DNA of 64,000 bases, from the NCBI GenBank assembly GCA_023267435.1, contig JAHFNH010000001.1, forward strand, positions 16,253-80,252, written 5' to 3'. A program made the position numbers and the translations under genes. Source of the stretch: Candidatus Nomurabacteria bacterium. GTDB taxonomy: Bacteria > Patescibacteriota > Minisyncoccia > Phycocordibacterales > UBA9973. Shown here one piece after another: positions 33,475 through 63,487 of this stretch (positions are counted from its first letter, which is position 1; every line of letters starts with the position of its first letter). The notes under the pieces are model-generated. The model ran no database searches. It saw only the letters and a list, made by a program, of their open reading frames with translations, and was not told the DNA's origin.

Positions 33475-33505
33475 AGCCTCTATGGCTGATTCGCCGATGA
33501 GGCGA
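33475..33505. repeat. GC-rich double-hairpin REP-like element, copy 1 (AGCC-TCTAT-GGCT + TCGCC-GATGA-GGCGA)
   Basis: Same two-hairpin architecture and loop sequences (TCTAC/TCTAT and GATGA) as the copies at 38179, 62274 and 63456. Confidence 0.55.
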
Positions 33506-33661
33506 AAATTAAATTGTTTATATCACAATCAGCAATATAAAAACTGCCAAAAGTGCAGTTACGTCTCATACTATCAAATTCAAAAATAAAGTCAAATCTG
33601 GAAAATATACAATAAAAAATCCCCAATCGTTATGATACGATTAGGGACATTTTAATAATAC

Positions 33662-34645
33662 TTAGTAAAAGAAACCTGAATTCCTTTTGGATTTGCTTAT
33701 CAAAGTACCGGGCAAATCTGGCTTCCAGAAATTTTTCACGCGAAGCGGTATCTCTTTATCTTTCAACTCTTTGAGAGTTTTCGGATGAACAAGACCATAA
33801 GCAGTACCATTCGGCTCAATCATTTCCTGAAAATGATCATAAGAAAGAGTTTTGAAAAACTTTGCATCCTTTCCAGCTTTTTTAGGATTTTCAAGTCCCA
33901 CACCCGGAACGTCTTTCCATAAAACAACTTCTGTGACTTCTTCTGCTTTTAATATTCCTGAATCAACAAGCAAAGAAGCGATGAGAGCTGCACTGTAATC
34001 ACTTCCCTCACGGCCAAGAGTCGTATAACCTTCAAAATAAAATTCTGGTTTTCTGTCTAAGCGAGCACCTGCAATAAATCCTTGAGTTATAACTGGTATT
34101 TCTTTTCTTAAACAATAAATCAAACCGCAATCAAAGAGAGTTTTCATAGATTCTTCCTTAGAGACAATGGCGTTACCAAAATCTAAATTGGTCCTGATAA
34201 AATTTTTAGCCGGTATGAGTTTGTTTGAATAATCATTATCAGCCAGAAAAGCGCTAACTATCCGAGATGAAATGATTTCACCTTGAGCCATAAGCTGATC
34301 ACGAACCATTTCAAAAGAATTACATTTATTGATTCCCACAAATGATTCAGTCAGATATTTCATAATCTCCTCAAATTTAAATGGAACATCTGGTCTTTTT
34401 TTGAAAAGTTCCTTAATTATTGGTTCATTATATTTTCTAACCAATTCAAGAGACTGCTCAAAAAGATCTGTGCGATTTTCAATAATACCGCGTGCAACAT
34501 TTTCAAGTGCATTTGTTGTTTTACCTATTGCTGAAACGACAACAATATTTGGTTTTTCTTTTTTTACAATTTTTCCGCATTGCCGAAGAGAAGGAACATC
34601 TTTCAAGGAAGCTCCTCCAAATTTATGAATTTTTATTTCTAACAT
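33662..34645 (-). CDS. aspartate kinase-like amino-acid-kinase catalytic domain, lacking ACT regulatory domains
   Basis: IHKFGGASL, IVVVSAIGKTTN, TTLGREGSDYSAALIASLL...LVHPKTL...GTLI align to the aspartokinase catalytic core; the protein ends about 15 aa after GTLI. Confidence 0.6.
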   Translation of the reverse strand: MLEIKIHKFGGASLKDVPSLRQCGKIVKKEKPNIVVVSAIGKTTNALENVARGIIENRTDLFEQSLELVRKYNEPIIKELFKKRPDVPFKFEEIMKYLTESFVGINKCNSFEMVRDQLMAQGEIISSRIVSAFLADNDYSNKLIPAKNFIRTNLDFGNAIVSKEESMKTLFDCGLIYCLRKEIPVITQGFIAGARLDRKPEFYFEGYTTLGREGSDYSAALIASLLVDSGILKAEEVTEVVLWKDVPGVGLENPKKAGKDAKFFKTLSYDHFQEMIEPNGTAYGLVHPKTLKELKDKEIPLRVKNFWKPDLPGTLISKSKRNSGFFY

Positions 34646-34818
34646 AGCTTGTTGTTTAAAGGGTTAGTATTCTGTTTTCTTAGATCTATTTTTTCTTAAC
34701 CTTACTTAAAATTTACAAACTTGTCAAACAATAACTTGCTTTTAAGGCACCTGAATAGTAAGGTAAAGAAAGAAAACAACTAGAAATCCGGTGTGTTCCG
34801 GTAAAAATAAATAGCACT

Positions 34819-35931
34819 TTGAAAATGAAACAACAATTAGCAGAATTCAAGGACATTGTGCCTATGATTCATCTCTTTTCAGGAATACTGAAAGGAACCA
34901 ATATTCTCTTTGATTTTGGTAATTCGCTCAAACTTTTGAAATATGAGGGAAATTCTCTCGAGGTGATGGAACCGAATACTTTCTCATACAGCAGACATGT
35001 TACCTTAATGACTTTTCCAAAAAGTTTTTTTGATAACAAAAAAACAAATGAGGAAAAATCTTTGCCAGCCAAACAAGAAAAAAACTTATTAAAGAAACTT
35101 CAAGCGAATATTTTAGGAACTCATATGCTTGATTTTAATTTGGATGAAGAATTTGGCATCTGGCTTCCTTCGTCATATGGCAAGGATCTATTTTTGACTA
35201 TTGCAGGAAAATATAAAGACGGCGTAGAAAAAATGGATAACCTTCCCATAATCACAATAGATCCAAGCCTTGTCGAAAAAAGATTGAAAGAAGTGACTCG
35301 TCCGGATTATTATGAAAATGTCATAGTTCCCTTTTTGGAAAATAAAAGTACAAAATTTAAAATACCTAAAGAGGAACAACCTTGGCATAATAAATTTTTT
35401 CAGACAAAGAAAGATTATGTCAGGCGAAGAATAACTGAATTGCCGAATGAATTAAAACATGGAGATTTTTTGTATGTCGGGTGTAAAGAAGAAGTATTTC
35501 TTCAGGGCTTTGTGGAAATGAACAATGAATATACGAATCGAAAAGATAACTGGTATTGCGGTGTAAGCACAAAACCAATTCTTTATTTTTCTAATAATTA
35601 TTTAGAGTTTATTTCTAAACATGATGCCGAAATGCCAAAGCATGAAGGTGAAGGTTCTGTAAATGTCGCGAATTATCGCACCTATGACATACCAGAGATG
35701 GGAGGTAAACGTTTTATCTTCCCACAAATAGGCAGAAACACTGATTGCAAAAATGGATTGTTTACAGGATATCCTGAATTAATTACAGGAAATCTGGACG
35801 AAGCCTTGAAACATTTTGCCAAAACGGATTTTGCTGAATTTTCTGATGTGGTAGAAAGGTATGCGAAAAATATGTCGTTCATACATCCATCATTGGAATA
35901 TGTAAAAAATGGAAGCAGGTATTTTTGCTAA
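34819..35931 (+). CDS. hypothetical protein (only sizeable plus-strand gene inside the str cluster)
   Basis: 370-aa ORF followed by a strong terminator. Confidence 0.5.
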   Translation: MKMKQQLAEFKDIVPMIHLFSGILKGTNILFDFGNSLKLLKYEGNSLEVMEPNTFSYSRHVTLMTFPKSFFDNKKTNEEKSLPAKQEKNLLKKLQANILGTHMLDFNLDEEFGIWLPSSYGKDLFLTIAGKYKDGVEKMDNLPIITIDPSLVEKRLKEVTRPDYYENVIVPFLENKSTKFKIPKEEQPWHNKFFQTKKDYVRRRITELPNELKHGDFLYVGCKEEVFLQGFVEMNNEYTNRKDNWYCGVSTKPILYFSNNYLEFISKHDAEMPKHEGEGSVNVANYRTYDIPEMGGKRFIFPQIGRNTDCKNGLFTGYPELITGNLDEALKHFAKTDFAEFSDVVERYAKNMSFIHPSLEYVKNGSRYFC

Positions 35932-35945
35932 ACACAAAAAAGCAA

Positions 35946-35973
35946 ATCGCCCTCGAGTAAACTCGAGGGCGAT
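35946..35973. terminator. bidirectional terminator (convergent with the fusA end)
   Basis: Perfect 12-bp stem ATCGCCCTCGAG-TAAA-CTCGAGGGCGAT with T-run. Confidence 0.75.
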
Positions 35974-35998
35974 TTTTTATTTTTAATAAATTTTTATT

Positions 35999-38146
35999 TT
36001 ATTTTCTTGCTGCGATGATTGTGTCTGCTACGTTTTGAGGCACAATATCGTATCTCAAGAATTCCATTGTGAATGACGCACGTCCTTCTGTCATAGATCT
36101 CAAGCCGGTCATGTAACCGAACATTTCAGAAAGAGGAACGACAGCTTTGATGACTTTACTCATACCACGCTCTTCCATACCTTCGATAAGTCCGCGCTTG
36201 GATGAAAGGTTTCCTGTGACGTCTCCCATGAATTTATCTGGAGTCACAACTTCAACTTTCATCATCGGCTCAAGGATAACTGGGTTAGCTCTTCGGCAAG
36301 CATCTTGCACAGCCATCGAAGCGGCGATTTTGAAAGCCATTTCGTTGGAGTCCACTTCGTGGTAAGAACCGTCCCAAAGTTCGACGGAAACATTTACCAT
36401 TTTAAATCCTGCCAAGATACCGCGATCCAAACCTTCTTTAAATCCTTTTTCACAGGCAGGAATATATTCTTGTGGAATAACTCCTCCTTTGATTGTGTTG
36501 ATGAATTCGAAACCAGGCGCTCTCTTTGTGTTCTTTGGTAGATCTTCCACTTCTTCTTTGGTCATAGCAACCATAGGCTTTACTTTGATCTTTACGTGAC
36601 CGTAGTTTCCACGTCCTCCGGATTGCTTGATGTATTTACCTTCAGCGTCAGCATTACCATTGATTGTCTCACGGTAGGCTACTTGAGGCTTACCAACATT
36701 GGCTTCCACCGTAAACTCTCTTTTCATACGATCAACAATAATTTCCAAGTGCAATTCTCCCATTCCAGCAATAATAGTCTCTCCTGTTTCTTGGTCGGTG
36801 GTCACACGGAAAGTAGGATCTTCTTGAGCCAAACGATTCAAAGCCATACCCATTTTTTCTTGGTCCGCTTTTGTCTTTGGTTCAATTCTTAGAGAGATAA
36901 CTGGTTCTGGGAAAACGATACGGTTCAACTCGATTGGATTTGCTTCATCACAAAGAGTATCAGAAGTGATAGTGTCTTTCAATCCGACAGCCGCTGCGAT
37001 TTCTCCAGCATAAACTTTCTTTACTTCTTCACGATCATTCGCATGCATACGCAAGATACGTCCGATTCTTTCTTTATTTCTGGTACGAGGATTATAAACA
37101 TAACTTCCGGCTTCAAGAGAACCTGAGTAAACACGGAAGAAAATAATTTGTCCGACGAATGGATCTGTCGCAACTTTGAAAGCCAAAGCTGAGAAAGGTT
37201 CTGTATCAGAAGCGTGACGAACTGCGGGTTCATCATTGTCTGGATTGATACCAGGGATAGGAGGAATATCTGTCGGAGCTGGAAGATAATCAACCACAGC
37301 ATCGAGCACAAGCTGAACACCTTTGTTTTTTAACGCAGAACCTGCGAAGACTGGGAAAACATTGTTGGCAATAACTGCCTTGCGAAGTGTCTTCTTAAGG
37401 ACATCCATACTAGGCTTCATTCCTTCAAGATATTCAGACATAAGGACATCGTCTTGTTCAACAATCTTCTCAACTAATTCTGCGTGATATTTTTCTGCAT
37501 CCGCTTTGTATTCTTCAGGAATGTCCTTTTCGATAACTTTGTTTCCCATGTCACCTTCGAAGTAATAAGCCTTCATACGTAGAAGATCCACGACACCTTC
37601 ATGCTTTTCTTCTAGTCCAATAGGAATCTGCATACGAACAGCTTTCTTTGTAAGTCTGTCTAAAATAGTTGCATAGGAGTGTTCAAAAGATGCACCAGTT
37701 CTGTCTAATTTGTTAATGAAACAAATACGAGGAACATTGGCTTCATCGGCATAGCGCCAGTTTGTTTCGGACTGAGGTTCTACTCCGGCCACGCCGTCGA
37801 AGACCACAACTGCACCGTCGAGCACGCGGAGAGAACGCTTCACTTCCACAGTGAAGTCGATGTGCCCAGGAGTATCAATAATATTGAAACGATGTTTCTT
37901 TGTTTTATCTGTCAGAGCGTAAGTAGGTGTCCAAAAACAAGTAACAGCGGCAGAAGTAATAGTGATACCTCTCTCTCTTTCTTGTTCCATCCAGTCTGTG
38001 GTGGTTTCCCCTTCGTGCACTTCACCTATTTTGTGTGATACGCCTGTATAAAAAAGCACGCGTTCAGTGGTGGTAGTCTTACCAGCATCGATGTGTGCAA
38101 TAATTCCAAAATTTCTTACTTTTTCTAACGGATAATCTCTTTCCAT
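35999..38146 (-). CDS. fusA: elongation factor G
   Basis: [13 protein letters not shown], 715 aa. Confidence 0.95.
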
Positions 38147-38178
38147 ATATATTGATTGTTAATAAATGATTGATAATA

Positions 38179-38210
38179 TCGCCTCATCGGCGATCCGCCG
38201 TAGAGGCGGA
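38179..38210. repeat. GC-rich double-hairpin REP-like element, copy 2 (TCGCC-TCATC-GGCGA + TCCGCC-GTAGA-GGCGGA)
   Basis: Reverse orientation of the consensus, upstream of fusA. Confidence 0.6.
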
Positions 38211-38336
38211 AAAATAAAAAAGGCATAGGCCTTCGTTACGAACAATATACGACATTTGCCCCAAATTTGCAAACCTCGTCGTAAACTTACGACAGGGTAA
38301 ATAAAAAAACCTCAACATATGTAAATGCAAAGGTTT

Positions 38337-38567
38337 TTAATAATACGATTCATTTCTTGAGTCCTTAAATAATTTAACAAAATAATCCTTGTTATCAGTA
38401 AAAGTATTATCTTCGTAACCCATTCCCGTTTCTACAAAAAAAGATTCTAAAATAACAAAATAATCTTCTGCCATAGAACCACCGAAGTTTTCAATATAAT
38501 ACTTACAATATCTCAAGAAAATACCTTCTACGTGATTATCACCTGGAATCAATCTAAATTTTTCCAT
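38337..38567 (-). CDS. hypothetical small protein (island gene 6)
   Basis: 76-aa ORF preceded by a cassette-type intergenic module. Confidence 0.4.
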   Translation of the reverse strand: MEKFRLIPGDNHVEGIFLRYCKYYIENFGGSMAEDYFVILESFFVETGMGYEDNTFTDNKDYFVKLFKDSRNESYY

Positions 38568-38624
38568 GTCCTTAAATTTAAGTTTATAAATATCTATTTA
38601 ATCTTAAATTACCATTTAAGGATA

Positions 38625-38695
38625 ATTAGTCAATGCTAAACAAAAAAGCGCCCTTACGATAATCTGTAAGGACACTTCGCTTTAAAACCATGGCG
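38625..38695 (-). repeat. cassette boundary module copy E (TTGACTAAT box + CCTTAC/GTAAGG terminator hairpin + CTTCGCTTAAAACCATGG box)
   Basis: Near-identical to 40214..40284. Confidence 0.6.
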
Positions 38696-38714
38696 TAGGT
38701 TTATCAGCATAAAT

Positions 38715-38927
38715 TTAATACTCGTATTCATAAAAAGAAAGGAAAATGAAAATTAACATAAATACTCCAATTAAACTTAAACCTGAAAGGATACTATTTT
38801 TAAAACAAAGAAAAATTCCTGCAATAAGTACAGAATACATAAATATCGCAATAATCTTTACCTTTGTTTGTCTTTCCAAATTCTTAATTTTTAAGAAAGG
38901 AAAAAGTAATATTTTAGATATTTTCAT
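38715..38927 (-). CDS. hypothetical small membrane protein, 2 TM (island gene 5)
   Basis: Two hydrophobic helices. Confidence 0.4.
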   Translation of the reverse strand: MKISKILLFPFLKIKNLERQTKVKIIAIFMYSVLIAGIFLCFKNSILSGLSLIGVFMLIFIFLSFYEYEY

Positions 38928-38931
38928 TGTC

Positions 38932-39618
38932 TTAAGTTTTTAGTAATGTAAATTGTGATCTGTATGATTCAAAAACTTCATAGGATTTCAAATAATCCAA
39001 GAAATAATTTATCATTTTAATTCTGTGATTTAATCTTTTGTAAGCTTTCAATTTTAGCGCGGAACGACAGTATGAAAGTTCTTGCTGAAGATAATTTTCA
39101 AATTTCTCAATTAAATCTTTACGCTTTTTAATTTCGGGACGTATTCCATTATAAAACAAAAAAGAATGCGCTAAATCAAATTTTATTTTTGAAATTCTTA
39201 ATTCCATCTCACAAGAAAAGTAAGCGACTTTTAGTTGAAAATTGGTACTACTTCTTGCAGAATATTCATCAATACCAAATGGGTCGAAATGAAAACCTGT
39301 TTTTGATTTGGTTTCATTCACAATACATTCCGTTTGTCTGTTTATTTTTTGTTTTCGTGTTTTTTTAAGATCTTCAATACACTGTTTTACATCTTTAATT
39401 GTATTCTCTATTTCTTCCATTTTTGCAATTGTTTCCGGCAAATAAAATTCATTCTTATTGATTTCAATAAAATCGATTAATTTACCTTTTTCTATTTCTG
39501 CAAGAATAAGTAAATCGATAAGCTTTTTAGATCTAAAAAAATACTCTAGTAAAAAGAGTAAGATATAAACGAACACTATAAATGCAGTAATTTTTATAAC
39601 TAAATAAAATATTTCCAT
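38932..39618 (-). CDS. hypothetical membrane-anchored coiled-coil protein (island gene 4)
   Basis: N-terminal TM (ITAFIVFVYILLFLL), K/E-rich helical remainder. Confidence 0.45.
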   Translation of the reverse strand: MEIFYLVIKITAFIVFVYILLFLLEYFFRSKKLIDLLILAEIEKGKLIDFIEINKNEFYLPETIAKMEEIENTIKDVKQCIEDLKKTRKQKINRQTECIVNETKSKTGFHFDPFGIDEYSARSSTNFQLKVAYFSCEMELRISKIKFDLAHSFLFYNGIRPEIKKRKDLIEKFENYLQQELSYCRSALKLKAYKRLNHRIKMINYFLDYLKSYEVFESYRSQFTLLKT

Positions 39619-39700
39619 TTTTCTTTGATTTTCAAGGAACGACTGGTTTGACTCCGTTCAAAATCACATTACCATTTTTAGACTTTTAGTCAAATAAAAA

Positions 39701-39723
39701 AGAGCTGAATATTTATCAGCTCT
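39701..39723 (-). terminator. terminator of island gene 3
   Basis: AGAGCTGA-ATATTTA-TCAGCTCT, 8-bp stem with T-run. Confidence 0.6.
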
Positions 39724-39730
39724 TTTACTC

Positions 39731-40150
39731 TTAGTGTACATCAAAAAATGATTCCTTTATTTTAGTAACAACACATTTACTTTTTCCTTCACCACAATCT
39801 TGTCCTGAATATGTACCGAACCAAATACCACCTTCTTTTTTATCAAAAACATACTCAATCACAGGACGACCAGTATAAGGCATTCCTTTAATTAAGTATT
39901 GTTTAGTAAAACTTAATTCGCTATCACTTAATCTAAAGTTAGTAATTTTTGATTCACCCCATTTATCGTTCATACTGCCACAAAAACCTTTTTCATTATC
40001 TTTTGATGAACCAACGATTCCATGAAACATTGCAAATATCATTGCATCTTTAATCGTTGCAACGATTCCGATACTTTGGTCATATGCTGTACCAAAAATT
40101 TTACCTTGCTGAAAAATAATTCCTTGCAAGGCATAGAGATTTCTTTCCAT
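39731..40150 (-). CDS. hypothetical protein (island gene 3)
   Basis: 139-aa ORF with conserved upstream module copy C. Confidence 0.5.
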   Translation of the reverse strand: MERNLYALQGIIFQQGKIFGTAYDQSIGIVATIKDAMIFAMFHGIVGSSKDNEKGFCGSMNDKWGESKITNFRLSDSELSFTKQYLIKGMPYTGRPVIEYVFDKKEGGIWFGTYSGQDCGEGKSKCVVTKIKESFFDVH

Positions 40151-40157
40151 ATTGTTT

Positions 40158-40284
40158 TTTGTTTTAAAAGAAGTTAATACTATATATTTACCCTCACACT
40201 ACCACTTTATGAAATTTAATCAATGCTAAATAAAAAAACGCCCTTACGATAACCTGTAAGGACGCTTCGCTTAAAACCATGGAC
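40158..40284 (-). repeat. cassette boundary module copy C (conserved leader + TTGATTAAAT box + terminator hairpin + CTTCGCTTAAAACCATGG)
   Basis: GTTTTAAAAGAAGTT...CCCTCACACTACCACTTT then ATTTAATCAATGCTAAATAAAAAAAC then GCCCTTACGATAACCTGTAAGGAC. Confidence 0.6.
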
Positions 40285-40313
40285 TGATTTTATAGCATAA
40301 AAATTTATTATTA

Positions 40314-41300
40314 CTACAACAAAGCTCCAAGTAATTCAACTTTTTTCTTTGGATTTAATCTTCCAACCGATTGACTGCCTTTTTGTATTTTTTCAAATAC
40401 AGATTCGTTTGATTTCTTGTCACTAAAAATCTTCCATTCTTCCGGCAAATAAAGACTTTTTATTGAAAAATTATTTTTATGAAGTTGAACAATTCGTTCC
40501 TTGCCTATTTTAGGAATTAGAATTTCTTGAGTCTTACCGTTAAACAGCCTAAGGAAACTAATCAGGTGCTCATCCTTTAGGATGCCTATATGTTCTGCAA
40601 TACAATTAAATACATCTTCATTAAAAGTATAATCCTTACAATACTCATCCTGAAAAATATTTTCTAATCCGTCACCTTCAAAAAGAGACTTCTGATACAA
40701 CCAAAGTATTTTCTTTAAATACTCATTCGAGACTAAATTAAGTGCCGGAAAAAATACTCTTGGATGAACTGAAGAAAATAGATGCATGGCCTCAAAAGGA
40801 AATTCCTTTTCTTTTTTGTATAAAAAAATATCCTTTTCTCTTGCCGAAGCCGGAGCTTTGACATTTAAACAGCTACCAAATAAAAAGTTGATAATTTCTA
40901 ATACCCGTTTCGGGGAAGCTACAGAAAAGTAACGCGATAAGTTATAACCATGACCATAATGATTTTGATCATTTTTCCATCTACCCCAAGCACCACCTAT
41001 ATCAACAGAATTTTTTGCAGCGATTCTGATTAAAAGATGCGGTGGTAAAATATCAAGTAATTCTTTTTTGATTCCTTCTCCAAGATCGAAATTAATACTC
41101 CATATACTAGAAAAATCGACAGTATCAGCATCGTATTTTACAAATTCCAGAAATTTTTCCGGTGTAAGCTTATTTAACACTTTAAGATAACGCTCACTAT
41201 CAAGATCCATAAGCTCTTGATGTAATGTTTTAATTGGGAGCTTTAACACAGAACCAATGAGTTCATTGATTACCTGTTCTTTCTTTGTTTGTTTTTTCAT
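40314..41300 (-). CDS. hypothetical protein (island gene 2)
   Basis: 328-aa ORF with conserved upstream module copy B. Confidence 0.5.
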   Translation of the reverse strand: MKKQTKKEQVINELIGSVLKLPIKTLHQELMDLDSERYLKVLNKLTPEKFLEFVKYDADTVDFSSIWSINFDLGEGIKKELLDILPPHLLIRIAAKNSVDIGGAWGRWKNDQNHYGHGYNLSRYFSVASPKRVLEIINFLFGSCLNVKAPASAREKDIFLYKKEKEFPFEAMHLFSSVHPRVFFPALNLVSNEYLKKILWLYQKSLFEGDGLENIFQDEYCKDYTFNEDVFNCIAEHIGILKDEHLISFLRLFNGKTQEILIPKIGKERIVQLHKNNFSIKSLYLPEEWKIFSDKKSNESVFEKIQKGSQSVGRLNPKKKVELLGALL

Positions 41301-41309
41301 ATCTATATT

Positions 41310-41420
41310 TAGTTTTAAAAGAAGTTTATATTTCGTTTATTTACCTTCACACTACCATTTTAAAATACTTTGTCAAAGTTACTTCAAACAAATAAAAAAG
41401 CCCTCACAATTTGTGAGGAC
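41310..41420 (-). repeat. cassette boundary module copy B
   Basis: TAGTTTTAAAAGAAGTTTATATTTCGTTTATTTACCTTCACACTACCATTTT, then TTTGTCAAAG box, A-run and hairpin CCTCACA-ATTT-GTGAGG. Confidence 0.6.
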
Positions 41421-41440
41421 TTAAAACAACTTTTGCTTTT

Positions 41441-42367
41441 TTATTTTAATGTATCATTTAATGTTTGAGAAAAATTAAATGAAACAACCATCTTCCCATC
41501 TTCAACCTCCACCTCCGAAAATACACTGGAAGAAAAATCAACCTTAAATTTTCCTTTGACTTCTTCCCAATTATCAGTGTTTAATATCTTCCAATAAGCA
41601 TCTTCACTTGAGTTGTGTTTAACCGAACAAGCAAGATATTTATCTGTACATTTTACACTCATAATAATTTCACCTTTTTCAGACAAAGAAAGGTATGATT
41701 TCGTTTCAAGATTATAGACGAAAAAATGACGATTAAAATCCGATCCGTATCTAAGTACTACATACTTTGGAGCGACAAAAAAGAAAACATTGGTTTCTTT
41801 TGCGGATCCTTCTTTTTGGAGTTTCACAGGAAGTGGAATAGTTAAAAAAGAATTTTCTGCAATAAAGTAAACCATCTTGTCAGGAGCACGGTATCCATGA
41901 TCAGGAGAAAGGAAAAGTACTTTTTCCCCGTTAAATATTTCTGTCTTTTCACATTTTTTAAAGAACCCTACACCATTCGCCTCTAGGATATGGTTTGGCA
42001 CAAAACGATCCTCGTTAAATAAGTAGGTTGCATAATGGTCATGTGAGCTTCCTTCTACTGAAAGCTGAATAAAATCTTCAGTAAGTGAAAAAATCTTTCC
42101 TTCATAAAAATCAAAGGAATTTTTACACTTTAACCATTTACCTTCTCCGCGAAGATAAACACAGAAAATATCCTTAACGGTAGTGCATTGCACAATTTTT
42201 TCAAAAACTTTTATTTCTTTAAATCCCTGAGGACTGCCATAAGGACCTTCAATAATAGGTTTTGATTCTTCAATCGAAAAATAAAGCAATTCATTAGAAT
42301 CTTTAAATAAAAGAATTCCTTGTTCCTCTTTTGAGAAAGCCAAGGTTAATACAGTTGTTGTTTCCAT
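41441..42367 (-). CDS. hypothetical beta-rich protein (island gene 1)
   Basis: 308-aa ORF with conserved upstream module copy A. Confidence 0.5.
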   Translation of the reverse strand: METTTVLTLAFSKEEQGILLFKDSNELLYFSIEESKPIIEGPYGSPQGFKEIKVFEKIVQCTTVKDIFCVYLRGEGKWLKCKNSFDFYEGKIFSLTEDFIQLSVEGSSHDHYATYLFNEDRFVPNHILEANGVGFFKKCEKTEIFNGEKVLFLSPDHGYRAPDKMVYFIAENSFLTIPLPVKLQKEGSAKETNVFFFVAPKYVVLRYGSDFNRHFFVYNLETKSYLSLSEKGEIIMSVKCTDKYLACSVKHNSSEDAYWKILNTDNWEEVKGKFKVDFSSSVFSEVEVEDGKMVVSFNFSQTLNDTLK

Positions 42368-42374
42368 TTTTATT

Positions 42375-42469
42375 TAGTTTTAAAAGAAGTTTATATTCCG
42401 TTTATTTATCTTCACACTACCACTTTCAGATATTTAGTCAACAAAAACAAAATCCACCGATGAGGCGGA
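42375..42469 (-). repeat. cassette boundary module copy A (conserved leader + TTTAGTCAA box + half-REP hairpin TCCACC-GATGA-GGCGGA)
   Basis: TAGTTTTAAAAGAAGTTTATATTCCGTTTATTTATCTTCACACTACCACTTT is about 90% identical to copy B. Confidence 0.6.
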
Positions 42470-42490
42470 TTAGAGTTTGTATTTTTAGTA

Positions 42491-42961
42491 TTACCAAGCG
42501 AAGTGAGCGAAGGCTTTGTTGGCTTCTGCCATTTTGTGTGTGTCTTCTCTCTTCTTGATGGCAGCACCTTCGTTCTTTGAAGCTGCGATTAATTCATCAG
42601 CAAGTTTCAAATGCATTGGCTGGCCTTTTTTGGAACGAGCAGCGTCACGAATCCATCTCATAGCTAATGCAAGACGACGTTCAGGGCGAACTTCACGAGG
42701 AACCTGATAGTTTGCGCCTCCGATTCTCTTTGAACGAACTTCAGTCAATGGACCAGCGTTCTTCATTGCAAGATCGAAAATTTCCAAAGGATTAGGATTG
42801 CCTGTCTTTTCTTTTATAACATCAAAAGCTTTGTACATAACTTTTCTAGCAGTCTCTTTCTTTCCAGACCACATGGTGTAGTTAATAAACTTCTCAAGCT
42901 TTTGAGAGTTATAAACGAAATCAGGTCCTACGATATTTCTATTTTTTACTTTTCTTCGCAT
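42491..42961 (-). CDS. rpsG: 30S ribosomal protein S7
   Basis: S7 family pattern; follows rpsL. Confidence 0.9.
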   Translation of the reverse strand: MRRKVKNRNIVGPDFVYNSQKLEKFINYTMWSGKKETARKVMYKAFDVIKEKTGNPNPLEIFDLAMKNAGPLTEVRSKRIGGANYQVPREVRPERRLALAMRWIRDAARSKKGQPMHLKLADELIAASKNEGAAIKKREDTHKMAEANKAFAHFAW

Positions 42962-54289: not shown

Positions 54290-55333
54290 TTAGATGAGAT
54301 TTACCTCTGGTGTCAGCTTTAAACCGAATTTTTGTTCAACCGATTCAATGATTTTATCAGCTAAATCTAAAATTTCTTCGCCTTTCGCTCCGCCATAATT
54401 CACTAAAACAAGCGCTTGTTTATCATGTACGCCGACATTGCCGAGTCTTTTTCCTTTCCAACCAGACTGTTCAATGAGCCAGCCAGTTGGGATTTTTATC
54501 AATTCTCCTTCTGCCTCACCGGCAGACGAGTCTTTAAACACTGGCATGTCTGAGTATATTTCCAGTAAGCTCTGTGCTTTTTCTTTATCGACATAAACAT
54601 TCTTAAAAAAACTTCCAGCATTACCTAAAATTTTTGGGTCAGGTAGTTTGCTTTTGCGAATTGCTGAGACGGCATCGCTGACATCTTTGGAACTTTTTAT
54701 TTCGATATTGTTTTCTTTTAAATAACTCTCGAGTGCTTTGTAGTCTGCATTCAATTTTGGAATTTTGCTCAATTTCAAAGTTATTGCAGTAATAAAATAT
54801 TTACCTTTTAATTTATTTTTAAAAACACTTTCCCTGTAACCGAACTCACATTCTTCTTTTGTAAAAACTTTTTTCTCACCAGACCCTATTTCAATAGCTT
54901 CTAAACTTTCTAAAACATCTTTCAACTCCACTCCGTATGCTCCCATATTTTGTATCGGTGCTGCGCCAGCCGTGCCAGGAATCAACGACATATTTTCAAT
55001 ACCCCAAAATCCGTGATTTACAGAAAACAAAACCACATCATGCCAGACTTCCCCACCCATAGCTTTAATCAAAACTGTTTCTGAATTTTCATCCTGAACT
55101 TGCTGAAGGACAATTCCTTTTAATTTATCTAAAACAACCAAACCATTAAAATCTTTGGTAAAAAGAACATTACTGCCGGCACCTAAAATAAATCTTTCAT
55201 TTTCCTTAAATTCCGGAGACAAAAAAAGTTCCTGCAAATCCGCTTCACTAGTAACCTCGACAAAAAGCTTCGCTTTAGCCCTTATTCCAAAAGTATTTAA
55301 ATTAGTTAAATCATAATCCCGTAAAATTTCCAT
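54290..55333 (-). CDS. murB: UDP-N-acetylenolpyruvoylglucosamine reductase
   Basis: FAD-binding N-terminus (FILGAGSNVLF); MurB C-terminal domain. Confidence 0.75.
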   Translation of the reverse strand: MEILRDYDLTNLNTFGIRAKAKLFVEVTSEADLQELFLSPEFKENERFILGAGSNVLFTKDFNGLVVLDKLKGIVLQQVQDENSETVLIKAMGGEVWHDVVLFSVNHGFWGIENMSLIPGTAGAAPIQNMGAYGVELKDVLESLEAIEIGSGEKKVFTKEECEFGYRESVFKNKLKGKYFITAITLKLSKIPKLNADYKALESYLKENNIEIKSSKDVSDAVSAIRKSKLPDPKILGNAGSFFKNVYVDKEKAQSLLEIYSDMPVFKDSSAGEAEGELIKIPTGWLIEQSGWKGKRLGNVGVHDKQALVLVNYGGAKGEEILDLADKIIESVEQKFGLKLTPEVNLI

Positions 55334-56985: not shown

Positions 56986-56987
56986 TG

Positions 56988-57275: not shown

Positions 57276-57290
57276 TTTTGTTTAAATATT

Positions 57291-58348: not shown

Positions 58349-58470
58349 AACTTTATGATTTATTTGTTTAAAGAACTATTTGAGCCAATCAAACCACTGT
58401 GTGGTATCCAAGGCGGCTTTACCTTTGGGATATAATTTATAAATCTTTTGAGATAAAAAGTCAACAATAT

Positions 58471-59223
58471 TTACACTGAAAACTTTTTAAAATCTTCTGG
58501 AAGGGGTGCTTCTATTTTTATTTTTTTACCTTCTAAATTTTCAAATTCAATAGACTTGGCATGCAAGGCTAAACGAGAAATGCCTAGAGGGCAAGGTTTG
58601 CCCGGATCATAAAGTGAATCACAGGCAACAGGGTGATTTAAATATTTCATATGCACGCGGATCTGATGCGTGCGTCCAGTCTTGGGACGTACTTCCAAAT
58701 AACTAAATTTATTTCCATTTTTATCTTCAAATTTTTTCAGGACAGTATATTCAGTAATAGCTTCACGTAGTTCTCCTCGCGCACCTCGTCCAGCCAAACG
58801 ACGACGAAAATCACTAGGGCTTCGTCCGATTGGTTTATTGATCACTCCTTTATCTTCTTTAAAGAATCCAGAAACGATAGCGTGATAAGTTTTCTTTATT
58901 TCCCTGTCTTGGAATTGTTTTTTTAAAAATTCATGAGCTTTTTGATTTTTCACCAAAAGTAAAACACCGGAAGTATCTTTGTCTAAACGATGCACTATGC
59001 CAGGACGTTTTATTTCACTCTCTTCAGAAACAATCGGTTCACCGACATTTTCCATTTCCGGATAATTTTCCAAAATCCAATGGGTCAAATCTTTTTCCTT
59101 GCTCTTTCCATCCGCATGCACCGAAATACCCGACGGTTTGTCTATGGCTAAAATATTTTTATCTTCGTAGAGAACTTTGGGTAAAAGTTTACTGTTTTTG
59201 TTTGTTGATATTTTTTGTAACAT
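58471..59223 (-). CDS. RluA-family pseudouridine synthase
   Basis: HRLDKDTSGVLLLVKN catalytic Asp motif. Confidence 0.8.
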   Translation of the reverse strand: MLQKISTNKNSKLLPKVLYEDKNILAIDKPSGISVHADGKSKEKDLTHWILENYPEMENVGEPIVSEESEIKRPGIVHRLDKDTSGVLLLVKNQKAHEFLKKQFQDREIKKTYHAIVSGFFKEDKGVINKPIGRSPSDFRRRLAGRGARGELREAITEYTVLKKFEDKNGNKFSYLEVRPKTGRTHQIRVHMKYLNHPVACDSLYDPGKPCPLGISRLALHAKSIEFENLEGKKIKIEAPLPEDFKKFSV

Positions 59224-60238: not shown

Positions 60239-60316
60239 ACGCGGTTAGCTGTTTTGGTAGGTATCAAAAGTAGCCAACTAAAAGCATATTGTAAATATAT
60301 AGTTAAAAAAAATAAT

Positions 60317-60391
60317 GCGCGGTTAGCTCAGTTGGTAGAGCAACCCGTTTACACCGGGAAGGTCGTAGGTTCGAGTCCTACACCGCGCACA
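60317..60391 (+). tRNA. tRNA-Val (TAC)
   Basis: GCGCGGTTAGCTCAGTTGGTAGAGC...CCCG-TTTACAC-CGGG...GTAGG-TTCGAGT-CCTAC-ACCGCGC-A. Confidence 0.8.
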
Positions 60392-60408
60392 AAACGAGTA
60401 TTTAACAA

Positions 60409-60426
60409 AAGCACCCTACGGTGCTT
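60409..60426 (+). terminator. terminator after tRNA-Val
   Basis: AAGCACC-CTAC-GGTGCTT followed by TTGTTTGTTTTG. Confidence 0.7.
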
Positions 60427-60597
60427 TTGTTTGTTTTGTGCGAGCCGGAGTCATGTTTTTTCAGCAGAAAAAATAGACGAGGTGGGGTCGCGAAATTTCC
60501 GAGCGACGGCGAGGAAATATTTGTGATCACAAAACAACCTTAGAAAAATTATTCCTGACCACAAAATATCTTATCCACTAGTATTTGTGCGTGTTTT

Positions 60598-60607
60598 ATT
60601 GTTATAA
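60598..60607 (+). promoter_or_regulatory. candidate extended -10 (TGtTATAAT) for the receiver-domain gene
   Basis: ttattGTTATAATaaaaaatATG; two direct repeats of A(T/C)CACAAAA lie upstream (60531.., 60573..). Confidence 0.35.
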
Positions 60608-60615
60608 TAAAAAAT

Positions 60616-61005
60616 ATGGAAAAAAAGGTTCACATTCTTCTCGTTGACGATGATGAGATCATACGCAGATTTTTCGGCTCTAAACTCGCTGCTGCGGGCT
60701 ATGAAGTGATATATGGAGAAGATGGCAATGAAGGACGCGAAATGGCGCGACGTTTTCAGCCCGACCTTGTCTTGATGGATATCAACATGCCAGTGATGGA
60801 TGGCATCAAAGCTTCCAGTATGATGAAAGACGAAAAAGAAACTTCTAACATTCCGATTATTTTCCTTAGCAACGAGGACTTATCAATTGAAGAAGAGAAA
60901 GTAATAAAAGAGCTGGGTGTGTCAGGATGCATCCAAAAAGGAGTTGAACCTGAAGAACTTATCGATTATGTTAAAAAAGCTCTCGCGAACCTTGCTGAAA
61001 AATAA
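60616..61005 (+). CDS. stand-alone response-regulator receiver (CheY-like) domain protein
   Basis: LLVDDDE acidic pocket, phospho-acceptor D in LVLMDINMP, conserved K in IQKG. Confidence 0.8.
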   Translation: MEKKVHILLVDDDEIIRRFFGSKLAAAGYEVIYGEDGNEGREMARRFQPDLVLMDINMPVMDGIKASSMMKDEKETSNIPIIFLSNEDLSIEEEKVIKELGVSGCIQKGVEPEELIDYVKKALANLAEK

Positions 61006-61043
61006 TTTTGAAAATAGATTTTAATTTGCTAGTATGATGCCAT

Positions 61044-61115
61044 GCCCTCGTAGTTCAATGGATAGAACAAGGCTCTTCTAAGGCCTTGATGTAGGTTCGA
61101 TTCCTACCGAGGGCA
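61044..61115 (+). tRNA. tRNA-Arg (TCT)
   Basis: GCCCTCG-TA-GTTC-AATGGATA-GAAC...AGGCT-CTTCTAA-GGCCT...GTAGG-TTCGATT-CCTAC-CGAGGGC-A. Confidence 0.8.
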
Positions 61116-61128
61116 CAAAATTAAAAAT

Positions 61129-61146
61129 CCAAGCATTATTGCTTGG
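61129..61146 (+). terminator. terminator after tRNA-Arg
   Basis: CCAAGCA-TTAT-TGCTTGG followed by TTTTTT. Confidence 0.7.
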
Positions 61147-61268
61147 TTTTTTAATTTCGATAACCTTGGGAATCGAACCGAAGGCGCACATTTTTAATAA
61201 GCAAAGCGCATATAAAAATGTAGCGTCTCGACCAGAGGGAGAGGCGATTACGTTCCAAAAATAATTTT

Positions 61269-62201
61269 TTATTTAACCCCCTCCAACGCAAGCCCTAATG
61301 GAGCAGTAAACAATAGTGATTGTTCGAAATTCATCTCTGGAATATTTTTTTCTATGTCTAAAATATTAACCCAAACATTTGCGACTTCGACTTTGTGTTT
61401 TAAGCTGCCAGACAAATAATCAGCGAGTGCTGTTAGGTCCATGCCTCCACCGCATAAAAATATTTTTTCAACTGACGGGCGAACTTTTCCATCTTCATCT
61501 TTATGCGTATGCCAATACAAAAAGTGTTTTGATATTTCCTCGCGCAAAACGTGGATATTGTCAGAAAACATTTCTCCACTGGCATTCAATGTGGAATCAA
61601 GTATTACAATGCCATTAGAAACAATAGAAATTCCCGTATGTGTGGCGCCTAGATTGACGATCATATGAGTTTCGAAATCTACCTTTTTAATGACGCTCTG
61701 AGCTGTCGCCTGCGCCTTGGTCTCAAAAGACGAAATCGAAATATTAGAGTTTTCAAAAGCAGAAAGATAACTCTCAATTATATTTTTAGCTATGACAATG
61801 ACCTGCACTTCCCAACTCTGGTTGTCTTCATTTAATATTTTATAATCAAAAACAACTGCTTGATCTGACATCGGAATATTGTATTCTAAGGAAAGTTCTA
61901 TTCCCTTTCTGATGTTTTTCAACCCAGCTTTTTCCAACCTAATTTTAAAAATAAATATTTTTTCTTCCGGCAGAGAAACATGCACAGACTTTATTCCTTC
62001 TTCTTTTTTTAAGACAGACAATATTTCTTCAAAAAGTTCCGGCTCCATTATTTCTCCCGCCTCGATGATGCCCGGCGCGATCCGGCGCGATCCATATCGT
62101 CCAGTTTTGATACTATCTTTTACATGGACAAGCTCCGCAAATTTCAATGATTCATCTGAAATTTCCAAACCGAAAGAAGATGCCTTGCTGAAACTCGGCA
62201 T
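61269..62201 (-). CDS. pilM: PilM-like actin-fold type IV pilus assembly ATPase (orphan; no pilN/O/Q follow)
   Basis: FGLEISDESLKFAELV (N-terminal phosphate-1-like), NLGATHTGISIV, FLCGGGMDLTALADYL. Start placed at the internal MPSFSKASSF so the REP element 62274..62305 stays intergenic. Confidence 0.6.
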   Translation of the reverse strand: MPSFSKASSFGLEISDESLKFAELVHVKDSIKTGRYGSRRIAPGIIEAGEIMEPELFEEILSVLKKEEGIKSVHVSLPEEKIFIFKIRLEKAGLKNIRKGIELSLEYNIPMSDQAVVFDYKILNEDNQSWEVQVIVIAKNIIESYLSAFENSNISISSFETKAQATAQSVIKKVDFETHMIVNLGATHTGISIVSNGIVILDSTLNASGEMFSDNIHVLREEISKHFLYWHTHKDEDGKVRPSVEKIFLCGGGMDLTALADYLSGSLKHKVEVANVWVNILDIEKNIPEMNFEQSLLFTAPLGLALEGVK

Positions 62202-62273
62202 TAAAGAAGATCCTTTGCATAAGTTCTTAAACATAAAGACATTATAGCAACAAACAAGTGATATGAACAAATT

Positions 62274-62305
62274 CCGCCTCATCAGCGGATGCGCCGTAGA
62301 GGCGC
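62274..62305. repeat. GC-rich double-hairpin REP-like element, copy 4 (CCGCCTCATCAGCGG + ATGCGCCGTAGAGGCGC)
   Basis: 32-nt near-perfect inverted copy of the element at 63456..63487. Confidence 0.65.
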
Positions 62306-62306
62306 A

Positions 62307-62636
62307 TTATTTTGCTCGTGTACCAGCAGGAATTTCATCATTTGGTTCCAGTAAAGAAAATTTTCCGTCTTCAGTCGAGACAGCTACGATCATCCCATTA
62401 CTTTCAAATCCGCGAATCATTCGTGGTTCTAGGTTCGCAACAAACATACATTTCTTTCCAACAAGTACAGAACAATCTGGAAAATAAAGAGATATACCAG
62501 AAACAATTTGTCTTGGATGTTCTTCACCTAAATCTACTGAAAGTTTCAACAACTTATCAGTATCAGGGATTTTTTCGGCGGACAAAATCTTACCCACAGC
62601 CATTTCAACTTTTTTAAAATCTTCAAAAGAAATCAT
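62307..62636 (-). CDS. stand-alone tRNA-binding domain protein (CsaA/Trbp111/MetRS-C-terminal-like)
   Basis: FKKVEMAVGKILSAEKIPDTDKLLKLSVDLGEE..RQIVSGI...GKKCMFVANLEPRMIRGFESNGMIVA. Confidence 0.7.
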   Translation of the reverse strand: MISFEDFKKVEMAVGKILSAEKIPDTDKLLKLSVDLGEEHPRQIVSGISLYFPDCSVLVGKKCMFVANLEPRMIRGFESNGMIVAVSTEDGKFSLLEPNDEIPAGTRAK

Positions 62637-62669
62637 TTTATTTTTTATTATTTATAATAATTTATTATC

Positions 62670-63116
62670 TTACTTTTCTGCTTGTTTATTTATTTTATCT
62701 AAATATCTCTGCAATATCAAAGCTGCTGCCGAAGCATCTATCCTGCCCGACTTTATCTGTTTCACTCGGCCGTGCGCCTGCGAGGGACTCAAGTCTTTTT
62801 TAGTATCTCCTGACTTGCGCGCCTCGACAGAAGTTAAAAATTCTTTTTGCTTATGAATAGGCAAATTAAACTTCTCGCCTAATTCTAAAATAAAGACATC
62901 AATGCGGGCTGAGAGTGCATTTAATTTTCCTGAAAAATCCACCGACTCGCCGACGACAATTTCTGAAATTTTTTCAGACTTAATAATCTCCCCTATTTTT
63001 TTAAATGTATTTGCGTCATTGGGCACTATCTCTTTCGGAAACGCTAAACTCATATTTTCGTCGGAAACAGCCACTCCGATTCTTTTTGTCCCATAATCAA
63101 TGCCTAGAAATCTCAT
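62670..63116 (-). CDS. ruvX: YqgF/RuvX putative pre-16S rRNA nuclease / Holliday-junction resolvase-like
   Basis: MRFLGIDYGTKRIGVAVSD N-terminus. Confidence 0.8.
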   Translation of the reverse strand: MRFLGIDYGTKRIGVAVSDENMSLAFPKEIVPNDANTFKKIGEIIKSEKISEIVVGESVDFSGKLNALSARIDVFILELGEKFNLPIHKQKEFLTSVEARKSGDTKKDLSPSQAHGRVKQIKSGRIDASAAALILQRYLDKINKQAEK

Positions 63117-63163
63117 ATAGAGACAGACTAGCATAAAAAAGAGTTTTTTGATATGATTCAGAC

Positions 63164-63400
63164 ATGCATTTTTTTATAATAAAAAACTTAATAGTAGCAG
63201 TATTAATGGTTTGGAGTCTTGTTTGGAAGTGTTATTCCGTATGGACCGCTGTAAAAGCTGGTCACAAAAAGTGGTTCGTAGCGCTTCTTTTGTTTAACAC
63301 ATTGGGTATTTTAGATATGATCTATATCTTCTATATCGCAAAAAAGAAGTGGTCTGAAGTAAAGGCAACTTTCCTAAGATTAATGTCATCAACTAAATAA
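63164..63400 (+). CDS. hypothetical small membrane protein, 2 TM
   Basis: Two hydrophobic segments, basic loop. Confidence 0.4.
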   Translation: MHFFIIKNLIVAVLMVWSLVWKCYSVWTAVKAGHKKWFVALLLFNTLGILDMIYIFYIAKKKWSEVKATFLRLMSSTK

Positions 63401-63455
63401 TAAAAACAAATCCACCGCTTAATACTGGTGGATTTGTTAATGGAGGTGTCGCATT

Positions 63456-63487
63456 GCGCCTCTACGGCGCATCCGCCGATGAGGCGG
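63456..63487. repeat. GC-rich double-hairpin REP-like element, copy 5 (consensus orientation GCGCC-TCTAC-GGCGC + CCGCC-GATGA-GGCGG)
   Basis: Both stems perfect; the cleanest copy in the window. Confidence 0.65.

Follow-up and report, generated by a model that had tools for sequence, protein, structure and literature searches.

The 64,000-nucleotide stretch analysed here (the window; positions 16,253 to 80,252 of contig JAHFNH010000001.1, assembly GCA_023267435.1, Candidatus Nomurabacteria bacterium) carries a family of GC-rich double hairpins (DH) between its genes. One copy lies inside a cassette that consists of a partial tRNA copy, a small GIY-YIG nuclease gene and an intact tRNA-Ser gene. 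Coordinates follow window numbering, in which copies 1, 2, 4 and 5 are double hairpins and site 3 is a single hairpin; L-numbers denote loci retrieved from other genomes and P-numbers homologous proteins. The five sites named in the original prediction all exist, four as full DH and one as a single hairpin (42451-42471):

33473..33506, plus strand: DH copy 1, solo, TCAGCC-TCTAT-GGCTGA / TTCGCC-GATGA-GGCGAA, covariance model 52.3 bits; between tuf (32191..33387, minus) and an amino-acid-kinase-family gene (33662..34645, minus), opposed to both
38178..38210, minus strand: DH copy 2, solo, 'main' subfamily, TCCGCC-TCTAC-GGCGGA / (A)TCGCC-GATGA-GGCGA(T), 58.9 bits; starts 8 nt past the canonical terminator at 38219-38234 and stops 31 nt short of the fusA start codon (38146)
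42451..42471, minus strand: site 3, single hairpin, AATCCGCC-TCATC-GGTGGATT then TTGTTTTTGT, 15.9 bits only
62273..62307, minus strand: DH copy 4, solo, ATGCGCC-TCTAC-GGCGCAT / TCCGCT-GATGA-GGCGGA, 55.8 bits; its first base is the last base of the tRNA_bind stop codon (62307-62309), and pilM lies downstream of it
62307..63400: block between copies 4 and 5, with tRNA_bind (62307..62636, minus), ruvX (62670..63134, minus) and DUF5652 (63164..63400, plus), named by Pfam
63455..63488, plus strand: DH copy 5, cassette resident, TGCGCC-TCTAC-GGCGCA / TCCGCC-GATGA-GGCGGA, 60 bits

With at most one mismatch allowed, the half-motif GCCGATGAGGC has 7 matches in the window against 0.25 expected, and the half-motif GCCTCTACGGC has 4 against 0.22. 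None of 100 shuffles equalled either observed count, which excludes chance. The four full copies are 33–35 bp long and all intergenic, in a window of 36% G+C, and the covariance model scores them at 52–60 bits (E about 1e-12 to 1e-14), with no other full copy over the 64 kb. The stem of site 3 has an A.C mismatch on the plus strand, which is a G.T wobble on the transcribed minus strand. Folded as single-stranded DNA, all copies reach z-scores of -4.0 to -5.4 against shuffles, and the minimum-energy fold of copies 2 and 5 is one long hairpin, not two short ones, through GCCTC:GAGGC and CGGC:GCCG pairing. The near-identical inverted pair reported around a three-gene segment is also real: copies 4 and 5 are inverted relative to each other, have one difference in 34–35 positions, and bracket tRNA_bind, RuvX and DUF5652, which are ordinary conserved genes and not cargo. 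Copies 4 and 5 are almost the same sequence whereas the stems of copies 1 and 2 diverge, a contrast that suggests recent local copying. One further single hairpin, GTCTGCC-GGTGA-GGCAGA at 54509-54529 (minus strand, within the open reading frame (ORF) 54290..55333), matches the second half of the model at 12.5 bits (E 0.09), probably by chance.

The family is found throughout Patescibacteria (the candidate phyla radiation, CPR). A single scan of one genome per GTDB species with the exact pattern GCCTCTAYGGC N4-8 GCYGATGAGGC, for which about one chance match is expected under uniform composition, returned 45 loci, and 37 of these are low-GC metagenome-assembled genomes (MAGs) of Patescibacteria type. 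About 30 of the 37 are labelled Saccharibacteria, Paceibacterota, Nomurabacteria, Berkelbacteria, Wildermuthbacteria, Magasanikiibacteriota or 'Patescibacteria group', and the rest 'bacterium' only or, in two cases, 'Gammaproteobacteria'. The other eight loci are in GC-rich genomes, where the match has GC-rich ORF-like flanks, and are likely chance matches. Homologues of RuvX and of the GIY-YIG protein put the window itself among Paceibacterota/Nomurabacteria-like bacteria. The 35-nt core of copy 2 recurs with other immediate flanks in L002, L004, L007, L010, L013, L018 and others. Thus the consensus search beyond the window, suggested in the original prediction, did find a family, and its proposed behaviour, like that of repetitive extragenic palindromes (REPs), holds: GC-rich hairpin repeats are dispersed through an AT-rich genome in both orientations, and their stems co-vary.

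Covariation was assessed on 24 distinct copies and is informative for the outer stem pairs only, as the inner GCC/GGC pairs and the loops are fixed by the search pattern. Paired cells make up 98.7%, and four pairs have double-sided changes (26 cells). The covariation score is 0.337 compared to 0.095 in shuffled alignments (0/500 shuffles reach 0.337), and slid-partner controls stay at or below 0.066. A covariance-model search (R1) also recovered copies with other loops, single-hairpin copies and one triple-hairpin copy. The model variants and the copies adjacent to GIY-YIG genes give a common grammar, GCC-TC-NN-C-GGC and then GCC-G-NN-GA-GGC. Reverse complementation leaves it unchanged, so that either strand reads a pyrimidine-edged loop and then a purine-edged loop, and the bases fixed at the loop edges are exactly the ones paired in the one-hairpin fold. 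The loops had been described as conserved; their edges TC..C and G..GA are indeed fixed, but the central dinucleotides vary, and full conservation was an ascertainment effect. The step from conserved loops to a specific ligand was rejected, as model matches outside the pattern have TAGGA, GAAGC, TGTTC, GCTCT and other loops. We also dropped the idea that individual loops flip between orthologous copies, since only the central dinucleotides differ and hairpin 1 is always TC..C.

The element corresponds to no known RNA family in Rfam, where only tRNAs reach the gathering score and a search at E up to 10 around three copies gave spurious weak matches only; a known RNA family was rejected on these grounds. 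A phage vector was rejected as well, because the exact pattern has no match in viral contigs. The family includes variants with one, two and three hairpins and internal partial duplications (L018 2828-2883, L057 1396-1454, L037 1974-1998). In six Berkelbacteria loci (L017, L019, L026, L028, L032, L041), hairpin copies have the direct repeat ATTTGAGAT on both sides, sometimes in several tandem copies; these repeats could be a target-site duplication or part of a longer lineage-specific composite element.

Copy 5 is part of a tRNA-anchored nuclease cassette, a setting that the original prediction missed, as it did the invasion of coding sequence elsewhere. The segment downstream of the DUF5652 gene reads as follows:

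63410..63433, plus strand: terminator hairpin of DUF5652, immediately upstream of the cassette
63442..63454, plus strand: partial tRNA-Ser copy, positions 1-13 (GGAGGTGTCGCAT), 13/13 identical to 63758-63770
63489..63494, plus strand: partial tRNA copy, continued, AGTGTT compared to AGTGGT at tRNA positions 14-19
63512..63772, plus strand: GIY-YIG nuclease gene, 86 aa, catalytic domain only (Pfam PF01541, E 5e-14)
63758..63843, plus strand: intact tRNA-Ser(UGA), both anchor and target of the cassette

The hairpins split the partial tRNA copy between positions 13 and 14. At its 3' end the GIY-YIG gene runs into the intact tRNA-Ser with its last four codons and stop codon, an overlap of 13 nt plus the stop codon. 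There is no promoter room between the DH and the ATG, so transcription of the gene presumably starts before the partial tRNA copy and presumably takes in the tRNA as well. A tRNA-like or intron reading of copy 5 was rejected, as ARAGORN finds only the intact tRNA-Ser there and the upstream piece has no 3' acceptor strand. The best PDB matches of the protein are 1zg2 and 1ywl (bacterial UPF0213) and an SLX1 homologue, and proteins of this type form the minimal, Slx1-like structure-specific branch outside the homing-endonuclease lineage (PMC1564403). The original prediction had looked to a protein like the REP-associated tyrosine transposase (RAYT), or another one. A nuclease gene is linked to one copy, the only such gene beside any copy in the window, but it is Slx1-like GIY-YIG and not RAYT/IS200. 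For its 157 homologues, every name given by the source is a Patescibacteria lineage or a generic 'bacterium'.

The association of hairpin, nuclease gene and tRNA recurs in other genomes. A GIY-YIG gene is adjacent in 7 of the 37 hairpin loci, and the architecture of the window cassette is repeated in L001, L009, L023, L024 and L040. In L040 (2650-2906) the GIY-YIG gene is split by a frameshift and is likely a pseudogene; the hairpin element and partial tRNA copy are intact. For the reverse test, 80 metagenome loci were picked by GIY-YIG protein similarity alone. Among the 14 closest (L047-L060), a hairpin element immediately precedes the GIY-YIG start codon in 13 (full DH in 11, a single hairpin in L058 and L059), and L060 has none there. 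Within 100 nt after the gene, a tRNA-Ser or tRNA-Gln is counted for 12 of the 14. ARAGORN calls it in nine of these; the contigs of the other three, L049, L050 and L055, end inside the 5' sequence of a tRNA or before any tRNA is visible. The exceptions are L052, which has no downstream tRNA, and L060. L067 has the same arrangement at a tRNA-Gly, and one MAG carries cassettes at two tRNA-Ser isoacceptors.

The partial copies follow the resident tRNA. In 9 of 11 cassettes the Ser-type partial copy matches the tRNA of its own genome at 12-13 of 13 positions, though the 13-mers differ among genomes. The six bases after the DH are 5-6/6 identical to the resident tRNA in eight cassettes (L051 and L054 after a 1-nt correction of the tRNA start), and the C/T at the third base tracks the tRNA. 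The DH is thus a discrete insertion, and the partial tRNA copy that it interrupts undergoes concerted evolution with the intact gene. Cassettes of the Gln and Gly types break after ...GGTAG in the D-loop, and Gln-type cassettes have a further hairpin element directly adjoining the 5' end of the mature tRNA, as a full DH in L057, L076 and L077 and as a single hairpin in L058 and L059. Another second copy lies after a tRNA-Gln in L030 (5228-5400); it is preceded by the tRNA-D-loop-like fragment GCGTAGAAATTGGTAG and followed by a strongly structured GC-rich stretch with the motif TTCGAATCC, in which ARAGORN calls no tRNA or tmRNA.

Inverted repeats of 14-15 bp enclose the genes of a second class of small GIY-YIG proteins, which share 40-50% identity with the one in the window (further loci: L061, L066, L070, L072-L075, L079, L080), as in:

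L074: inverted repeats at 1480-1493 / 1746-1759, perfect
L078: inverted repeats at 1477-1491 / 1745-1759, 93% complementary (ATCCCGTACGAAAT / ATTTCGTACGGGAT)
L069: inverted repeats at 1481-1494 / 1746-1759, perfect (ATCACGTACGAAAT / ATTTCGTACGTGAT)

The arms co-vary, as the L069 pair illustrates, and the bracketing repeats place the whole second-class gene in the loop of a long stem.

Copies in other genomes also lie within coding sequence, which those in the window do not. The 36 nt are read there as the peptide KIASSAIRRRGG (K/E-I-A-S-S-A-I-R-R-R-G-G). Only copies with recognisable protein families on both sides were kept; a crude ORF census had given 10 copies 'in ORF', some of them artefacts of ORFs extended through the stop-free element (e.g., L002 and the ORF at 62282 in the window). 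The in-frame copies are:

L037 and L018, same position: RNase R; the L018 copy is the triple hairpin
L031: TsaD
L035: Dus
L020: MurD
L037: TrmD, a diverged DH-like stretch (EIARAAIRRTGG)
L013: N-terminus of UvrC; the gene may really start downstream of the copy

All seven use one frame, and always the strand complementary to TCTAC-to-GATGA. In alignments with PDB structures the peptide coincides exactly with a gap, of 12 residues for TsaD and of 13 for Dus. The TsaD loop has 32 residues (the mode) in 71 of 105 parsed homologues, and three sequences carry the DH peptide, namely homologues P0246 and P0300 and the L031 query. A filled and empty pair exists at the DNA level: L133 is filled, and L134 (82.6% identical) has only a lysine-codon A-run at the position. 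The CPR TsaD loop between REH and TYGPG (P0241-P0360) is an insertion hot spot with further recurrent inserts, TPTPLLxKERGLG (P0260, P0265, P0286, P0293), the related PYPTSPLLRGKRKEG (P0297) and GRSAFGW (P0291, P0301), which may derive from other small palindromic elements.

Insertion sites have a polarity. A-runs on the coding strand flank all eight in-ORF copies (the seven plus L133). On the TCTAC strand, the flanks of 42 distinct copies are T-rich in 26 and A-rich in 9, and many intergenic copies follow a terminator T-tract, as copy 2 does. In a crude orientation census, 14 copies were opposed to both neighbouring genes and 5 were co-directional. A/T-run polarity, not transcription, sets the orientation of the element. 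The tRNA-embedded copies have no A-run flanks; their contexts are GCAT-DH-AGYG and GGTAG-DH-GAC.

The element and the cassette are patchy among relatives. In L127-L132 (35 kb; RuvX 83-88% identical), the ruvX-tRNA_bind-pilM synteny is kept with no hairpin element and no GIY-YIG gene. No DH was found in the spacers after tRNA_bind in L127-L132 (L127 and L129 have extra genes there, and not all of these spacers are strictly orthologous), nor anywhere in L023. In L131 the site is empty, tRNA-Ser(UGA) being the immediate neighbour of ruvX. In L127, a 159-aa HNH-like ORF (2795-3274, minus strand; Pfam HNH 20.2 bits, just under the cut-off) lies directly upstream of tRNA-Ser(UGA) (2681-2768), in the place of the GIY-YIG gene. 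Small nuclease genes seem to settle preferentially on the 5' side of tRNA-Ser. The cassette is present in the same synteny in the more distant L009, L023 and L048/49, where the GIY-YIG protein is 72-78% identical; RuvX, PilM and tRNA_bind of L009 and L023 are only 40-62% identical. Where the neighbouring genes have diverged to that degree, the GIY-YIG protein still shows 72-74% identity. L046 is 100% identical to the window, and hence uninformative as a relative. The order and orientation RuvX / (DUF5652) / hairpin / GIY-YIG / tRNA-Ser are the same in L009, L023 and L048/49. Inversion or excision of 62307-63400, which the inverted pair had been thought to mediate, finds no support: the block has the same orientation in all eight related loci, and the order is kept in the hairpin-free L127-L132. 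The tRNA-Ser D-arm reads TCGCATAGYGG (GTCGCATAGTGG) in GIY-positive genomes and TGGCKGAGTGG (GTGGCTGAGTGG) in GIY-negative ones, which may be an indirect hint at cleavage of the empty allele only. The cassette is patchy at tRNA-Ser, tRNA-Gln and tRNA-Gly genes, as free-standing homing-type genes are.

We consider the element to be a CPR-wide selfish insertion element of about 34–36 bp, a GC-rich 'palindrome of palindromes' of the same kind as REPs, Rickettsia palindromic elements (RPEs) and mitochondrial GC clusters, with a probability of roughly 0.6. Each copy is able to extrude two 5-7-bp hairpins or one long hairpin, and gain and loss of copies take place at the DNA level. Their sites are AT-rich spacers, often just past a terminator, tRNA gene borders and, in other genomes, essential genes in frame, with insertion favouring A/T runs in a fixed polarity. 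One subfamily is integral to the cassette, in the order of a partial 5' tRNA copy split by hairpins, the GIY-YIG gene and the intact tRNA. Within the window, copy 5 is the cassette copy; copy 4 would be a recent inverted copy derived from it, copies 1 and 2 would be older, solo and from other subfamilies, and site 3 would be a terminator hairpin that may be half an element. The nuclease may recognise or cut extruded hairpins and so drive or seed their spread, as RAYT does for REPs. Its adjacency, its structure-specific relatives, the hairpins on both sides of Gln-type genes and the co-varying 14-bp inverted repeats around the second GIY-YIG class all point to action on hairpins, and make it a possible mobiliser. 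Effects at the RNA level, through 5'-UTR or 3'-end hairpins, would be secondary.

Several observations weigh against a selfish element or its link to the nuclease. In 30 of the 37 hairpin loci no GIY-YIG gene lies within 8 kb, and the MAGs with four hairpin matches (JBAZYS01, PFTZ01) have none in the retrieved loci. The Slx1-like branch consists mostly of vertically inherited repair proteins and not of selfish ones (PMC1564403). The RuvX / GIY-YIG / tRNA-Ser synteny shared by the distant L009 and L023 shows that the cassette can stay stable for long periods. Copy number is low (4-5 per 64 kb here and a handful of exact matches per MAG), far below that of classical REPs. No unambiguous target-site duplication was seen, although the flanking A-runs could hide one. 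The TrmD and MurD cases are ambiguous, as the peptide aligns to native residues without clean gaps. Strong functional constraint would likewise account for a main-subfamily sequence that is nearly the same in distant CPR classes, and enzyme-free template switching between A-runs is plausible.

A bolder form of this reading, which we advance tentatively, is that the double hairpin and the 86-aa Slx1-like GIY-YIG protein may be an undescribed two-component mobile system, a functional analogue of REP/RAYT in which the nuclease is a structure-specific GIY-YIG enzyme. The gene would persist by settling on tRNA genes, where it would rely on the tRNA promoter and restore the tRNA; the hairpin module would be copied into A/T runs genome-wide, essential genes included, and its 12-residue peptide would remodel core proteins across CPR.

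That the hairpins are selfish or neutral palindromic DNA spreading without a dedicated enzyme seems doubtful to us. A nascent strand stalled at an A/T run would switch to another copy, copy the hairpins and switch back, by microhomology-mediated template switching or gene conversion, and the GIY-YIG gene would be of homing type, have no relation to the hairpins and carry its one copy by coincidence. In favour are the A-runs of one polarity that border in-ORF copies, and many intergenic ones, on either side, the lack of a clear target-site duplication, the one-, two- and three-hairpin variants with internal partial duplications, and the many hairpin loci (30 of 37) without a nearby GIY-YIG gene. 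However, the tRNA-embedded copies lack A-run flanks, the sequence is conserved across distant CPR classes, and a hairpin upstream of the GIY-YIG start in 13 of 14 loci, in three tRNA contexts, is hard to explain by hitch-hiking.

We regard a selected cis-acting RNA structure as improbable. Such a structure would act as a back-up or bidirectional terminator, as a stabiliser of mRNA 5' or 3' ends, or as a site for an RNase or RNA-binding protein, with the loops read by a conserved CPR factor. The stems do co-vary, either strand gives a UCNNC loop followed by a GNNGA loop, copies of the main subfamily end in GGCGATTT(T), often after a terminator, and Gln-type copies abut the mature tRNA 5' end. 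Site 3 looks like the intrinsic terminator of rpsG (42491..42961), copy 4, which starts at the tRNA_bind stop codon, weakly resembles a terminator, and both have G.U wobbles on the transcribed strand. A terminator function had been claimed for at least three positions; the sequence fits one at site 3 and weakly at site 4, but not at sites 1, 2 and 5, which separate canonical terminators adjoin. These canonical terminators of the genome are longer, with an A-tract, hairpin and T-tract. The amino-acid-kinase-family gene upstream of copy 1 has its own at 33619-33648, and the DUF5652 gene has its own hairpin, so copy 5 is not needed as a terminator. The terminator role of the element is minor. Against RNA-level selection stand, in addition, in-frame copies in at least four to five different essential genes, the frequency of both orientations relative to transcription (14 opposed, 5 co-directional), freely varying central loop bases, absence of the element in close relatives, and no Rfam match at E up to 10.

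That the element is bound as duplex DNA by a protein dimer or tetramer (as an operator, e.g., for GIY-YIG autoregulation, a nucleoid or recombination site, or a DNA-uptake signal, with the 62273/63455 inverted pair as a recombination switch) is very improbable, as the nested dyad symmetry (GCC-N5-GGC twice plus an overall dyad), the loop-edge bases conserved regardless of orientation and the copy regularly present directly upstream of the GIY-YIG start are outweighed by outer stems that change by compensatory pairs without a fixed sequence, copies within coding sequence, a bracketed block of constant orientation in all eight related loci, a density far too low for an uptake signal and the lack of the exact pattern in viral contigs.

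As a selfish palindromic element, the family shares features with several known systems, and REPs, RPEs and the mitochondrial GC clusters or double-hairpin elements between them account for all the behaviour observed. REPs and bacterial interspersed mosaic elements with RAYT (TnpA_REP) in Enterobacteria and Pseudomonas are, according to PMC3733652, likewise 20-40-bp GC-rich imperfect palindromes, extragenic, in both orientations and with stem covariation; their nuclease gene is likewise flanked by repeat copies, and secondary roles near terminators have been proposed. The same source gives REPs a conserved GTAG/CGTC at one end of the palindrome, which the present element lacks: it ends in TT/TCC... 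and ...GGA/GA-TTT, with GTAG only in a loop on the reverse strand. The partner of REPs is a Y1 HUH transposase, in contrast to the Slx1-like GIY-YIG protein here; a Pfam scan of the ORFs flanking all copies found no Y1_Tnp, the whole window and genome not having been scanned for RAYT. REPs are species-specific and number hundreds of copies, whereas the present element numbers tens, keeps one consensus across class-level lineages and invades ORFs.

RPEs offer a parallel for the coding copies, being palindromic, intergenic and also in frame in unrelated housekeeping genes, where they encode a conserved, fold-compatible peptide (PMC10969869). Both RPE hosts and the hosts here are reduced, host-dependent bacteria. 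RPEs are about 100-150 bp and form Rickettsia-specific families, whereas the element here is 34–36 bp (12 codons), belongs to CPR and is unrelated in sequence. We know of no nuclease gene linked to RPEs.

Yeast mitochondrial GC clusters and the double-hairpin elements of Allomyces are also short GC-rich (double) hairpins in AT-rich compact genomes, mobile, with short preferred target motifs and no simple cut-and-paste (PMC4478555, citing Paquin et al. 2000). Their hosts are organelles and their sequences are unrelated, in contrast to a bacterial element with a minimal Slx1-like GIY-YIG gene overlapping a tRNA gene. These mitochondrial elements also occur near mobile endonuclease ORFs and tRNA genes, as Neurospora PstI palindromes flank tRNA genes.

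SegB of phage T4, encoded in a tRNA gene cluster, is likewise a GIY-YIG gene beside tRNA genes that is patchy and inherited with its flanks (PMC2330249). Enzymes of the SegB type have a DNA-binding domain, in contrast to the bare 86-aa catalytic domain here, and the split partial tRNA copy with its hairpin insert has no counterpart in the SegB system. The window cassette resembles a homing cassette in that an ORF of homing-endonuclease-type fold sits at a conserved gene and is patchy among relatives, with a branch that is Slx1-like and not that of the homing endonucleases. Within the same radiation, non-intron insertions with GIY-YIG ORFs lie in or next to stable-RNA genes, outside classical intron homing (PMC11270868); these are in 16S and 23S rRNA genes, and the main text of that paper has no hairpins or palindromes (0 occurrences), no tRNA association and no dispersed copies. 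Rho-independent terminators share a GC-rich stem and, after some copies (site 3, main subfamily), a T-run, but most hairpin copies lack a proper U-tract or have the wrong orientation. Compared to a miniature inverted-repeat transposable element, the whole element here is palindromic, and no parent insertion sequence was found.

Novel here are a host range within CPR, a size of 12 codons, the polarity with respect to A-runs and the tie to a minimal Slx1-like GIY-YIG gene anchored on tRNA genes. In a literature search of incomplete coverage on palindromic repeats of CPR/Saccharibacteria, on UPF0213/YhbQ and on GIY-YIG in Patescibacteria, neither the hairpin family nor tRNA-anchored cassettes were found, so an earlier description is possible. 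CPR bacteria have tiny genomes that are thought to be poor in repetitive or selfish DNA except for rRNA insertions. A palindromic element present across the radiation that tolerates insertion into essential genes (TsaD, Dus, RNase R, possibly MurD and TrmD), or even exploits it, would change this picture; after the RPEs it would be the second clear example of such behaviour in bacteria, and it would supply proteins with loops specific to individual lineages. The GIY-YIG link gives a testable role to the widespread UPF0213/YhbQ-like family, which to our knowledge has no known function, and may indicate a new mechanism for the spread of small palindromes.

In practical terms, the elements can mislead gene callers through extended ORFs and start codons called in hairpins. 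The ATG at 62282 falls in the GATGA loop of copy 4, and the window pilM ORF has 337 aa compared to 321 aa annotated. For P0124-P0127 and other homologues, GIY-YIG calls of 102-128 aa arise where ORF calls run through the stop-free GC-rich element. Hairpin elements are thus a likely source of mis-annotated starts in CPR genomes.

Two further features of the window concern gene order and terminators. The genes rpsG, fusA and tuf are all on the minus strand (32191-42961), with unrelated genes and terminators between them and no contiguous str operon, and each has a hairpin copy or half copy alongside. Two near-identical 34-nt terminator hairpins, GAAG(C/T)GTCCTTACAG..TATCGTAAGGGCG, lie 1.6 kb apart on the minus strand (38645-38678 and 40235-40268); they are either a small repeat family of their own or the traces of gene ends that were duplicated.

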